Positions 13,654 to 21,390 of a stretch of DNA of 64,000 nucleotides are shown here, piece by piece. This stretch comes from Saccostrea cucullata (lineage: Eukaryota): the NCBI RefSeq assembly GCF_032062105.1, contig NW_026918250.1, positions 62,001 to 126,000 on the forward strand. Direction: 5' to 3'. The notes under the pieces were generated by a model, which worked only from the letters and a program-made list of their open reading frames with translations, was not told the DNA's origin and searched no databases. Made by a program: the position numbers and the translations under genes. Position 1 is the first letter of the stretch, and every line of letters begins with the position of its first letter.

Positions 13654-14015
13654 CAGTACCTGGCCATAAGTCTGTCATAAAATGGCTGACGTAACGTAAC
13701 GTGAACAACGTGAACGCAAAATTCAAAAATAAAAAAAGTTCTATAAATATTAAGCACTTACCTTTTTATCTCTAGTATTTAGTTGCATGACCCTTAGATT
13801 TAATAACTTGTCGAATTCGCCTTGGAATTGAAGCATACAGACTCTGAATGTAGTGCTGAGGTTAGGACCACCATATTTCCTTTACTTTCAAGATCAGGTC
13901 TTCACGATTATGAATATTGTGTACCTGTCTCTGAAGACGTATTTTTATGGTTCTCCACACGTTTTCAATTACATTGATATCTGGAGATTGTGATGGCCAA
14001 ATAAGACATTTAATA
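13654..14015 (-). mobile_element. Tc1 transposon 3' end: transposase C-terminus and TIR
   Basis: Minus strand 14015-13772 reads IKCLIWPSQSPDINVIENVW...W*PQHYIQSLYASIPRRIRQVIKSKGHATKY*. The end is TA-CAGTACCTGGCCATAAG at 13654. Confidence 0.9.
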
Positions 14016-14218
14016 GCATCTATTTGCTTATATACAAAATAGATGCCTTTATTTTACGAGAGAAGTATTTTGTTTGAGTCGGGCTCGGCCTGACTACAGA
14101 GGTATATAAAGACTCGGGTTTGTCCTTCACCTTCCTTCCTGCTGAAACGTTCAAAAGGTATAGACGTTAAATTTTGTTGCTGGTAAATTTAAATAATTTT
14201 TCTAGTAAATCTCAAATA
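14011..14218 (+). repeat. Ngaro split direct repeat A1 (208 bp)
   Basis: Near-identical to 19471-19678 and 20316-20523. Confidence 0.95.
14103..14163 (+). promoter_or_regulatory. Putative Pol II promoter in repeat A (TATA box, pyrimidine-rich initiator, splice donor)
   Basis: TATATAAA at 14103-14110, ccttcaccttccttcc about 25 nt downstream, and aag|gtatag at 14158. Confidence 0.5.
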
Positions 14219-14599
14219 ATTGTTTAATTCTCTTTCTTACTTTTTAATTACAACAAATTTAAGCAAGATTTTCTAGGTTTATCTAAAAAAATACAATGGA
14301 TGACACTGGATTGTAAATTTGCATGTGGCAGACGACACGTGCGTTATCTCTTCATCACGTACAGAATCAGTCAATTTATAATTATCGTATGCAAATTTAA
14401 TTTTCTTTTTGCATTGCCGGCTGTCTCTGTTTATAATTTACAGAGAAAATTAAATGATGTGGCTTTTTAATTCTTTATAAATGTATATCTAGACACGCGC
14501 GCGTGACGTACATACCTGTGTTATAATTGTTCGGCATTAACTTATATTCTAATTTTTGTTATATGTTTCATACTGTAATTCATCAACGACGGAGAAAAA

Positions 14600-15625
14600 A
14601 TGCCACCCAAAAAAAGGAGAGCCAGCAAAAAGCCACCCAGTGCGAGTACAAGCGGGGAACCAACTGGGGAGGCCCAAACAGGTGAAGAGGGCACTGTGGC
14701 CACAAGTGGGGGAACGAATTTGGATCTGCAAGTTGACACGCACAGGCGTCCCAGTTCCAAAAGAAAGAGAGCAGAAGCTGCTCTTTCATCACCTGAATCC
14801 AATCCTGCTTTACCAGGTATATCTGTGCCCACCCCCTTTGAATTGCCAAATTCAGTTCAATCAGTATTTTCACCTCTAGCGAGCATTGTCTCAAGTAGCA
14901 TAAGAACCAAAATAGTCAATTCTACGTACATTGATATTGCAGTGCTCCTAGATAACACTTCAATAAGTGAGACAATGGAGAAGAAAATTTATTTTAATGA
15001 TAAGGGGGAACTGATAACCAGGGAAAGCTCCCAAACTAAAGTCAAAATAACCTCAATAGATAAATGGACAGACGCATTTATCATTTATGCGAGCATTTAC
15101 TCAGCATCCCACCCAGATACTGTTCAAGATCTCTTTAAGTATCTGCACGACATTAGGCTCGGGGCTTCCCGGGGGGGCAGTTATATGGGATGGAAGACAT
15201 ACGATGAGCAATTTAGGCTCCGTCGTAGCCTGGACCCTGCGAGGTCATGGGGCAATATTGATTCTGAACTATGGCTTATGTACATGTCACCTGTAAGTTC
15301 ACCTTCTGCGGTGGGAGGAACTAATTCTAGACAAACGGGGCACAACAAATGTTACAATTTTAATTATCAGGGCATTTGTACTAAAGCTCAATGCATTTAC
15401 ATGCACTGCTGTTTAAAATGCGGTGGGCCTCACCCATTCTCTACTTGTCCAGGGGGCAATAATTACATGGGTCAAGCTAAACAAACTTATTCTCCAAATG
15501 TAAGAAGCAGTTTAAGGTTGCCTCAGGGTCCTAACAATTTTCGCCCTCGAACACCAGTCAACCCTCAATACACGCGACCCCTCAGACCACAAACAAATCT
15601 GGGAACTAGGAAAAACCCCAATTAA
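14600..15625 (+). CDS. Ngaro ORF1, gag-like protein with C-terminal Cys/His zinc fingers
   Basis: 341-aa ATG ORF with WxxAFxxY and WKTYDEQFR motifs, CYNFNYQGICTKAQCIYMHCCLKCGGPHPFSTC, and a basic N-terminus (PPKKRR). Confidence 0.9.
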   Translation: MPPKKRRASKKPPSASTSGEPTGEAQTGEEGTVATSGGTNLDLQVDTHRRPSSKRKRAEAALSSPESNPALPGISVPTPFELPNSVQSVFSPLASIVSSSIRTKIVNSTYIDIAVLLDNTSISETMEKKIYFNDKGELITRESSQTKVKITSIDKWTDAFIIYASIYSASHPDTVQDLFKYLHDIRLGASRGGSYMGWKTYDEQFRLRRSLDPARSWGNIDSELWLMYMSPVSSPSAVGGTNSRQTGHNKCYNFNYQGICTKAQCIYMHCCLKCGGPHPFSTCPGGNNYMGQAKQTYSPNVRSSLRLPQGPNNFRPRTPVNPQYTRPLRPQTNLGTRKNPN

Positions 15626-18288: not shown

Positions 18289-18902
18289 CCCCCTTGCAAG
18301 TATGGCGTGTGGGTTCCTCCATTATAAAAAGAGCATTCTTTGAAGCCTTTAAAAGTCCCTCGGGGGCCAACCTTGCTTTAGAAAGAGTCGGATTAAATAT
18401 ATGGTGGCAGGGCTACTCTGGACTTAAATTTATTGAAGTAAAAAGAAAACTCTTGCACCTGAAGAATTTTGAAAATGATCCTAACTTTATTGTTTTACAT
18501 TGTGGGGGCAATGACATTGGTACCAGAGCATATTCATTATATGAACTTATTAAAAAATTCCAGACAGATTTAGATGAAATTAAGGGTCACTTCCCCCAGA
18601 CCATCCTTATATGGTCCCAAATCCTTCCCCGGGTTCAATGGCGATATTCAGAAGACTTAATGGCCATGGAAAACTATAGGAACCGTTTAAATAGGGCAGT
18701 GGCCAAATACATATTGAAACAAGGGGGCTGCTATCTGAAATATCCAGATTTGATCAAAGATATCACTCAATTTTTGCTTCCTGATGGTGTACATTTAACA
18801 GAAGTAGGAAACTCCATTTTTCTTAATACAATTCAGGGAGGCCTTGAATACTTTGCTCTAAAAAGGGGTTGCGTGTATCCAGACAAGTCTGTAAGTACAT
18901 AG
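18289..18902 (+). CDS. Ngaro ORF4, SGNH hydrolase (probably spliced)
   Basis: Blocks VGSSII, QGYSGL, HCGGNDIG and DGVHL. A strong acceptor ttttttgttttgcag ends at 18288, immediately before the domain. Confidence 0.9.
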
Positions 18903-19007
18903 AAAAAGTTTGGGGGGTCTAGGGCAGTATTGGCGTGGATCAGTTGGCTTGCGGCTTTCCCCCTTGTGTGGGGTGACTGCAAACTGTGCCAGTATGCAGC
19001 CATGTGG

Positions 19008-21167
19008 CATCTGCGCACACCAAGCCAACTGTTGACAATGTTTGTGTGAAACTTGTACTATACTCAACTGGACTGTGTTGATGTGTGAACCACAGTTAAG
19101 TGTAGTACTATGTGACAGTGATATGAAATGTGAACTTAAAAAATGCATATTTGATTTTGAGATCTATTTGAAATTTAAATTTTGAGATATTTGATATTTG
19201 AACTAATTTGAGTTTGAGATCTGATGATTGATATGTGAACTTGATATTTGAACTTTGACATTTGAACTTTGAACTTTGTTTGATGTGTGCTGACCCTCCG
19301 CGGTAAACCCGGGACGGTTAGTGTATACACAGATTGATTTGAATTGATGGGTTTGCCCAATTGAAATGGCATCCCAAATTGTTTGTGAATTATTATGCCA
19401 CGACCAATACTCGCCATAACATTAAATATAAAAAACAACATTTGGTGTTGTATTCTTATCTCTGTATAAATAATAGCATCTATTTGCTTATATACAAAAT
19501 AGATGCCTTTATTTTACGAGAGAAGTATTTTGTTTGAGTCGGGCTCGGCCTGACTACAGAGGTATATAAAGACTCGGGTTTGTCCTTCACCTTCCTTCCT
19601 GCTGAACCATTCAAAAGGTATAGACGTTAAATTTTGTTGCTGGTAAATTTAAATAATTTTTCTAGTAAATCTCAAATACCCTCCCTCCCTCCACATCGAT
19701 ATTAAGTTGTATGTTCAATTGTTATTAAAACAAAAAAGTTCTGGTGCTTGGGGTTTTTCTCCTCTTTTTCAGGATTTGGAGCATCAATTCCATTTGGACT
19801 TTGTTGGATACATGCGTCAGGAACCGTCGTGGCACTATCTTAGATTGATGACCATCTGCGCACACCAAGCCAACTGTTGACAATGTTTGTGTGAAACTTG
19901 TACTATACTCAACTGGACTGTGTTGATGTGTGAACCACAGTTAAGTGTAGTACTATGTGACAGTGATATGAAATGTGAACTTAAAAAATGCATATTTGAT
20001 TTTGAGATCTATTTGAAATTTAAATTTTGAGATATTTGATATTTGAACTAATTTGAGTTTGAGATCTGATGATTGATATGTGAACTTGATATTTGAACTT
20101 TGACATTTGAACTTTGAACTTTGTTTGATGTGTGCTGACCCTCCGCGGTAAACCCGGGACGGTTAGTGTATACACAGATTGATTTGAATTGATGGGTTTG
20201 CCCAATTGAAATGGCATCCCAAATTGTTTGTGAATTATTATGCCACGACCAATACTCGCCATAACATTAAATATAAAAAACAACATTTGGTGTTGTATTC
20301 TTATCTCTGTATAAATAATAGCATCTATTTGCTTATATACAAAATAGATGCCTTTATTTTACGAGAGAAGTATTTTGTTTGAGTCGGGCTCGGCCTGACT
20401 ACAGAGGTATATAAAGACTCGGGTTTGTCCTTCACCTTCCTTCCTGCTGAAACGTTCAAAAGGTATAGACGTTAAATTTTGTTGCTGGTAAATTTAAATA
20501 ATTTTTCTAGTAAATCTCAAATACCCTCCCTCCCTCCACATCAGATATTAAGTTGTATGTTCAATTGTTATTAAAACAAAAAAGTTCTGGTGCTTGGGGT
20601 TTTTTCTCCTCTTTTTCAGGATTTGGAGCATCAATTCCATTTGGACTTGGTTGGATACATGCGTCAGGAACCGTCGTGGCACTATCTTAGATTGATGACC
20701 ATCTGCGCACACCAAGCCAACTGTTGACAATGTTTGTGTGAAACTTGTACTATACTCAACTGGACTGTGTTGATGTGTGAACCACAGTTAAGTGTAGTAC
20801 TATGTGACAGTGATATGAAATGTGAACTTAAAAAATGCATATTTGATTTTGAGATCTATTTGAAATTTAAATTTTGAGATATTTGATATTTGAACTAATT
20901 TGAGTTTGAGATCTGATGATTGATATGTGAACTTGATATTTGAACTTTGACATTTGAACTTTGAACTTTGTTTGATGTGTGCTGACCCTCCGCGGTAAAC
21001 CCGGGACGGTTAGTGTATACACAGATTGATTTGAATTGATGGGTTTGCCCAATTGAAATGGCATCCCAAATTGTTTGTGAATTATTATGCCACGACCAAT
21101 ACTCGCCATAACATTAAATATAAAAAACAACATTTGGTGTTGTATTCTTATCTCTGTATAAATAATA
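19008..21167 (+). repeat. Ngaro 3' repeat block B1-A2-C1-B2-A3-C2-B3, period 845-847 bp
   Basis: B at 19008-19470, 19853-20315 and 20700-21162; A at 19471-19678 and 20316-20523; spacer C at 19679-19852 and 20524-20699. Confidence 0.95.
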
Positions 21168-21390
21168 TCGTTTTCAGTTTTCCATGATTCTGTTGCGTTA
21201 GAGGAGTGGACCGGTGCATTATCATCCTGAAATAAATAGTCACCATTCGGGAAATGGCGCAAAATAACTGGCCATAAATTTGCATCCAAAATGTTAATGT
21301 ATTTCTGGGAATTAATATTCCCATCTACCTCTGTAAATGTTCCGATTCCTTCGTGAGTAATACACCCCCAAAACATTGCCGAGTACTTTC
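21163..21390 (-). pseudogene. Tc1 (DD34E) transposase, central part
   Basis: MFWGCI...GNINSQKYINIL...FQDDNAPVH...ENDI. Joined in frame to the segment ending at 14015 it gives 34 residues between D and E. The 5' part is missing. Confidence 0.9.

Follow-up and report, generated by a model that had tools for sequence, protein, structure and literature searches.

How does a Ngaro retrotransposon join host DNA, and what decides the base beside which it settles? The question is raised by a 64,000-nucleotide stretch of Saccostrea cucullata DNA (assembly GCF_032062105.1, contig NW_026918250.1, positions 62,001 to 126,000; hereafter the window, whose own numbering we use throughout), in which a Ngaro tyrosine-recombinase retrotransposon is inserted flush into a broken copy of a Tc1 transposon. 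We consider it probable that Ngaro elements integrate like integron cassettes, in that the element's own tyrosine recombinase (YR) would act on one folded sense strand and a base of the hairpin would program the first host base beyond the cut (position +1).

The element has the layout A1-ORFs-B1-A2-X-B2-A3-X-B3 (ORF, open reading frame; X, a spacer). By inspection of the sequence, its left junction reads gacatt-TAATA-gcatc, with TAATA at 14011-14015; the two internal junctions read gtataaa-TAATA-gcatc, with TAATA at 19471-19475 and 20316-20320; and the right junction reads gtataaa-TAATA-tcg, with TAATA at 21163-21167. All four are where the initial annotation of this DNA had placed them. That annotation had also claimed that deleting the element restores the Tc1 reading frame, and the removal of 7152 base pairs (bp) indeed regains the frame ENDIKCLIWPSQSPDINVIE; the DD34E spacing that it described is found in intact Tc1 paralogues. 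It had named Tc1 copies unlike the rebuilt empty site as contrary evidence. We fetched 29 Tc1 loci from the same genome, 21 of which span the insertion site, and among these the same 7 letters occur in 16, a single substitution in four and one additional A in one.

The analysis was extended to other copies, and all counts below come from a single genome. Besides the window copy there are 130 other YR matches in this genome, of which 100 were fetched. The split-repeat layout is present in 62 of the 100 and in the window copy, and the 38 without the full repeat layout were dropped. Once duplicates, two decayed copies and two clusters that proved false had been taken out, a clean set of 56 copies in 19 junction families was left. 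Clusters 12 and 16 and copies L107 and L136 were excluded, family 10 was excluded from the pair table, L368, L330, L112 and L117 were excluded for mutated internal junctions, and L194, L205 and L244 were excluded from the target table. Apart from the full-length copies, a family of about 6 kb (L191-L250, e.g., G000:C809, C3871 and C4800; about 95 pattern matches) carries the junction stems of the window element. No frame of 150 codons was found in the four copies of it that were checked, and this sister family, which contributes target sites, is likely to be a non-autonomous partner, judging from its sequence; its junction is covered by poly(A) RNA reads. One locus (L188, G000:C7549) contains two family 20 copies that share an orientation and are separated by about 620 bp.

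In all 56 copies and 19 families, crossover occurs at one point after TAA, which in most cases is ATAA|T. The element's bases at -8 to -1 are kept at the right junction in 55-56 of 56 copies, as are its bases at +1 to +8 at the left junction. On the opposite sides agreement is much lower: the left -1 equals the element base in 33 of 56 copies, the right +1 in 28 and the right +2 in 15. No base is shared on either side of the crossover in 11 of the 56, and to the right of the cut the paired copies never share more than three. If there were two exchanges across a 6-bp spacer without a match, about half of the insertions should be reciprocal; among 178 right junctions, one has six A-start bases, and this case is ambiguous. 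Three copies (L107, L163 and L194) have right junctions that deviate from the element within the last 4-8 bases, which may reflect later deletions or rare alternative crossovers.

The host contributes a single short half-site. The consensus of 81 sites, WWTAH|, is one half-site that lies to the left of the cut: 78 sites have T at -3 and 73 have A at -2, and G occurs once at -1 and once at +1. Family 17 has a looser target, T-W-N|W. Any second host arm to the right of the cut is weak (43 of the 81 sites have T at +8; uncorrected p = 3e-4), and the host targets, examined as hairpins at these 81 sites, show no stronger folding than the distal flanks. Of 29 independent insertions that carry the junction of the window copy, four have TAA|TA, 16 have TAA| and 27 have TA.| at the target. 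The initial annotation held that no base was gained or lost, and this is borne out by the Tc1 paralogues and by five other copies with a gap-free paralogue of the empty site. A local paralogue spans the join for 23 of 89 rebuilt targets, and the six paralogues that are at least 88% identical (the window's included) are gap-free at the join. Two sites that share no base are flush at about 79% paralogue identity, and some weaker matches are gapped near the join. Flush insertion thus holds beyond the window copy.

The internal junction, whose sequence is that of the inferred circle junction, forms a hairpin. Across B1/A2 (19459..19523, + strand; second copy across B2/A3 at 20304..20368, + strand) it consists of an outer stem, a 2x2 mismatch after the cut at 19473|19474, a 10-bp inner stem and an 11-nucleotide loop; within it the +1 T (19474) opposes a T (19508). 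The window B|A junction folds with a z score of -7.2 on one strand and -6.2 on the other, and 0 of 200 shuffles were as good. The left junction keeps the inner stem only (z = -2.5), and the right junction has no fold. Of the 19 families, 18 fold, with z scores of -3.2 to -8.3; the exception is one decayed copy. The outer stem, of up to about 16 bp, ends at the cut: pairing is Watson-Crick at -4 to -1 in 18 of 18 families, and after the cut it is so at +1 in three, at +2 in three, at +3 in eight and at +4 to +12 in 12-16 of them. Compensatory changes in the stems are frequent, and stem covariation is 0.435 vs 0.173 for shuffled controls (0 of 500 as high), while slid partners give at most 0.137. 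Bulges occur in the outer stem and vary between families. The central loops of families 7, 13 and 17 (L124, L133 and L144) are longer and asymmetric, at 8-9 nucleotides. The two strands fold about equally well, and neither folding energy nor the counts of G-T vs A-C pairs were informative as to which strand is used.

A further observation concerns the host base at +1. This base is T, or else it is complementary to the one opposite +1 in the hairpin, which lies 30-38 nucleotides away. This rule was suggested by 15 copies and then tested on newly fetched right junctions (families 11/14, 19 and 4). Where the hairpin partner is A, the host +1 is T in 36 of 36 sites. For partner G (n = 43) the host has T in 20, C in 17, A in five and G in one. 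For partner T (n = 99) there are 45 T, 44 A and 10 C, after the removal of two further mutated internal junctions (47 T before). Altogether the rule fits 162 of 178 sites, and label shuffling over 13 families gives p = 4e-5. The four families with partner G form no supported clade in the YR tree, whose deep forks are open. For families 11/14, left junctions have T at +1 in seven of seven clear cases, and one doubtful match has G. Since an unfolded duplex always has A opposite +1, the dependence on a base 30-38 nucleotides off is best explained by a fold that is present at strand exchange.

We therefore favor, as quite probable, a model in which the recombinase uses the folded B|A junction strand and exchanges one strand with a double-stranded host half-site. 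The folded strand might come from a plus-strand circle or from a cruciform in a double-stranded circle. YR would bind the outer stem and the host arm, and would cut the sense strand 3' of ATAA, with the arm staying on the tyrosine. The free 5' ends would then be swapped, and pairing would be checked at +1 only. Two new pairs would arise there, one between the element T and the host bottom strand and the other between the host +1 and the hairpin base formerly opposite T. A swap that keeps the number of +1 pairs would allow T only with partner A, T or C with partner G, and T or A with partner T. Replication or repair could resolve the resulting junction without a second exchange. Because the host arm would survive at the left junction, the site could be hit again. 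The single exchange, the sense-strand cleavage, the replicative resolution and the circular or cruciform donor are all inferred from the scars. Cleavage of the minus strand is disfavored: it would make -1 the base that is tested, but -1 is the least constrained of the three, and G, which is capable of wobble, is nearly absent.

It is important to emphasize that several points weigh against this model. The +1 rule is broken at 16 of the 178 sites. The class with partner A is nearly one lineage (families 11/14 supply 35 of its 36 sites), the partner in family 19 rests on a fold with a bulge, and the families are related to one another, which makes the permutation p optimistic. For families 11/14 only seven left junctions were read (all with T at +1), which makes a one-base-shifted crossover there unlikely rather than impossible. 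A pairing rule at +2 was considered and is not supported: the +2 pair is A-T in families 13 and 17, but T is found in 7 of 8 and 11 of 22 of their sites, respectively. It is the sense strand that the geometry points to, whereas the DIRS-1 complementary DNA (cDNA) is reported as antisense in the accessible part of PMC7192593, and the two strands fold about equally well. The presence of the sister family's junction in poly(A) RNA makes a role in RNA possible. The YR model is closest to Cre, with no integron integrase among the matches listed. Finally, the evidence consists of genomic scars of one genome, and the circle was not seen.

The alternative that survives best, which we regard as unlikely, is an unfolded, double-stranded circle whose junction reads ATAA-6 nucleotides-TTAT, like a dif site, and which undergoes one YR exchange. 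Here the hairpin would act earlier, in the RNA or cDNA (e.g., in a template jump or in packaging), and the +1 pattern would mirror a base preference of the enzyme that is also written in an inverted second core. In most families the linear junction does read ATAA-6 nucleotides-(C/T)TAT, which we take to resemble the dif core. An inverted second core would also covary, and the transcription of the junction in the sister family fits a function in RNA. However, this explanation does not account for the retention of mismatches at +1 to +3 next to conserved pairing at +4 to +12 and in an outer stem that reaches about 16 bp. It also requires a separate protein change for each preference (T, T/C and T/A), whereas base pairing predicts these directly.

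Considerably less probable is the published model for DIRS elements, in which a double-stranded circle undergoes two exchanges through an identical trinucleotide, here TAA; it is stated in the available portions of PMC3266345 and PMC7192593. In its favor, TAA is the commonest target, at least three bases are shared left of the cut in 30 of 56 copies, and insertion is flush without duplication. However, 23 of 56 copies do not match at -1, and it is the left junction that carries this mismatch (the right one keeps the element base in 55 of 56). Moreover, the triplet in family 17 is T-W-N, there is no reciprocal class, and TAA| occurs in only 16 of the 29 same-junction targets. Going by these junction sequences, we consider the trinucleotide model already largely refuted here. 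Lastly, the idea in the initial annotation that the 5-bp TAATA is the overlap region of the enzyme, which was to be checked by looking for TAAT(A) in the flanks of other copies, can practically be set aside: TAATA is at all four window junctions and in the empty Tc1, but TAA|TA is found in only four of the 29 same-junction insertions, at least 3+2 bases are shared in six of 56 copies over all families, and 11 of 56 share nothing beside the crossover. Because TAA|TA is so infrequent and the consensus is WWTAH|, the TAATA match at the window copy is partly chance. What stands of that interpretation is a crossover of junction by target without gain or loss, and a young age (see below).

The favored model, exchange through a folded strand, invites comparison with known systems. 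In the CTX-phi fold the bases beside the cut are paired. The window junction differs in that these bases are mismatched in its fold, and the element further differs in encoding its own YR and in having a host site that is not fixed. The folded-strand geometry nonetheless resembles that of CTX-phi, whose attP(+) recombines with dif via XerC (PMC3089051, in the part available). Integron attC sites are described, in excerpts of PMC5027507 and PMC4792948, as RYYYAA|C followed by an unpaired spacer and as being resolved by replication. The window junction is likewise an imperfect two-stem hairpin with a cut at the end of the outer stem (ATAA|T) beside an unpaired spacer, with micro-homology and one inferred exchange; predicted folds and covariation indicate two paired boxes around the spacer, with the cut at its edge. 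It lacks the AAC/GTT triplet, since the junction is TAA|T. It also differs in belonging to a eukaryotic retroelement, in a +1 pair that may be a mismatch (T-T or T-G), in degenerate genomic half-sites instead of attI, and in a Cre-like YR model. The element thus works like the attC and CTX-phi systems but is not an integron, because AAC is absent and the YR model matches Cre best. According to the accessible part of PMC4792948, folded-strand recombination is known only from integrons and CTX-phi.

Among retroelements, the closest likeness is to Ngaro and the Xenopus element DIRS-53_XT (PMC9210276 and PMC8547959, both available in part), with A1-ORFs-B1-A2-B2, frames for gag, reverse transcriptase (RT) and RNase H (RH), YR and SGNH, no target duplication, and solo AB units. 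The window element differs from them in its spacer X between A2 and B2 and in its additional A-X-B unit, and the available passages on them contain no folded junction, one-arm target or +1 rule. DIRS-1-like elements (sections of PMC3266345 and PMC7192593) are similar as YR retrotransposons with flush insertion and single-stranded cDNA, which in DIRS-1 is antisense according to the latter; the window element differs in that its repeats are direct, not inverted, and that 3-bp target identity is not required. In the same portion of PMC7192593, the specificity of YR is said not to have been studied experimentally, and the circle junction could not be amplified.

The assignment to Ngaro rests on split direct repeats (A1...B1-A2-B2, plus the spacer and one additional unit), on gag, RT/RH and YR ORFs on one strand, and on an SGNH hydrolase ORF that follows YR. 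All features of the element are on the + strand. Repeat A1 (14014..14218) starts the element (TAGCATC...), with crossover between 14013 and 14014. The initial annotation considered all four ORFs open, and they are four long frames from stop to stop, of 348 (gag-like), 564 (RT/RH), 339 (YR) and 242 (SGNH) codons. The gag-like ORF (14600..15625) has no Pfam match and is named by position; its C-terminal part is Cys/His-rich by eye. The RT ORF (15516..17210) matches RVT_1 (E = 3.7e-11), with an RNase H-like end that is weak in Pfam and below the cut-off. The tyrosine recombinase ORF (17090..18109) has Phage_integrase and SAM-like N domains, and its R, K, H-x-x-R, W and Y are conserved, the catalytic residues across 24 rows. 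Its predicted structure (predicted local distance difference test score, pLDDT, 90) matches Cre best (E = 5.9e-15), and a sequence search of PDB gave weak Cre matches only. The SGNH/GDSL hydrolase ORF (18174..18902) matches Lipase_GDSL (E = 2.6e-7). A methyltransferase was matched neither at E 0.01 in the ORFs nor, for the end of pol, at E 1. The frames of RT and YR both lack an in-frame ATG ahead of their domains, and RT is in the +1 frame relative to gag, with an overlap of 110 nucleotides; expression of RT and YR, as read from these frames, presumably needs splicing, a frameshift or a non-AUG start. A raw RNA run (X24) has almost no coverage over the RT, YR and SGNH frames. The remaining parts are B1 (19008..19473, ending in ...AAATAA), A2 (19474..19678, with alleles C and A at 19607 and 19609), spacer X1 between A2 and B2 (19679..19852), B2 (19853..20318), which is the normal end of a Ngaro element, and the extra A3-X2-B3 unit (20319..21165), whose last base is the element end.

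The initial annotation regarded the insertion as young, and the repeats agree. B1, B2 and B3 are identical. A1 and A2 differ at two positions (14147 and 14149 vs 19607 and 19609, i.e., +134 and +136), and these differences are inherited, because copy L091 also has them; on both grounds, the insertion is young. The part of A that holds +134 and +136 is evidently not homogenized at every jump, the differences having been passed on in two independent copies, and by this sequence pattern the transcription start would lie upstream of +134. Two internal junctions occur in the window copy alone (one of 61 copies). A3 has A1-type alleles, X2 has an allele common to L092 and L093, and X1 matches L091. 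These alleles disfavor a plain local duplication of A2-X-B2, and the extra unit is likely to be the solo AB unit of a sister copy that made a second insertion at the same site; that one site could be used twice is expected under the folded-strand model, where the host arm stays usable after insertion, and such a repeated hit would explain the unit. Units of solo size are present three times in this genome (1.2-1.5 kb) and, in the available excerpt of a published account, also in Cafeteria. It is possible, instead, that the extra unit arose from a switch of RT between two RNAs or from an assembly join of two haplotypes.

The host Tc1 copy is a fragment on the - strand. Its 3' part (13652..14013) includes a terminal inverted repeat (13652-13688) and a premature stop codon, and it ends in TAA, which forms the host half-site on the left side of the cut. 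Its middle part (21166..21394) has a QDDNA motif and is interrupted at 21394 by another repeat; the 5' 770 bp are absent from the window. It differs from an intact copy at 8 positions in 591 bp. In the intact paralogues, an open frame of 368 codons shows D-34-E spacing and the Pfam domains DDE_3 and HTH_Tnp_Tc3_2, and terminal inverted repeats and a flanking TA are present. Four copies of about 1.36 kb (L062, L064, L065 and L067) are near-identical, with 368-codon open frames and 38-bp inverted repeats, and from these sequences the DD34E family appears to have been recently active. The initial annotation had suggested looking for the empty allele of this locus. None was found in the assembly, where the flank is entirely repeats, and read contigs (X3, X6 and X13) contain only an empty Tc1 form that is accounted for by paralogues. 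Among the read pieces listed, none bridges the left junction. On both sides of the locus (12310-13015 and 22289-23981), arrays of 166-168-bp repeats lie beside (GTCC)n microsatellites, and resemble bivalve satellites of the Helentron/HINE type.

No paper describing a folded Ngaro junction or a +1 rule turned up in the literature searched, which did not take in the work of Goodwin and Poulter or the review by Poulter and Butler, and the available parts of PMC3783388 and PMC6681497 have no passages on either. Insertion by the recombinases of the DIRS order has so far been a model and not a result, and the scars described here contradict the model of an identical trinucleotide. They also specify a folded oligonucleotide of 65 nucleotides, a strand and a cut position. 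If the proposed mechanism is true, changing one base in the hairpin should turn a T/A target preference into T/C or into T alone. It would also mean that animal genomes contain self-encoded folded-DNA recombination whose target rule can be read from sequence. For the design of DNA insertion tools, an integrase that leaves no scar and requires no more than a short A/T-rich half-site would be attractive.

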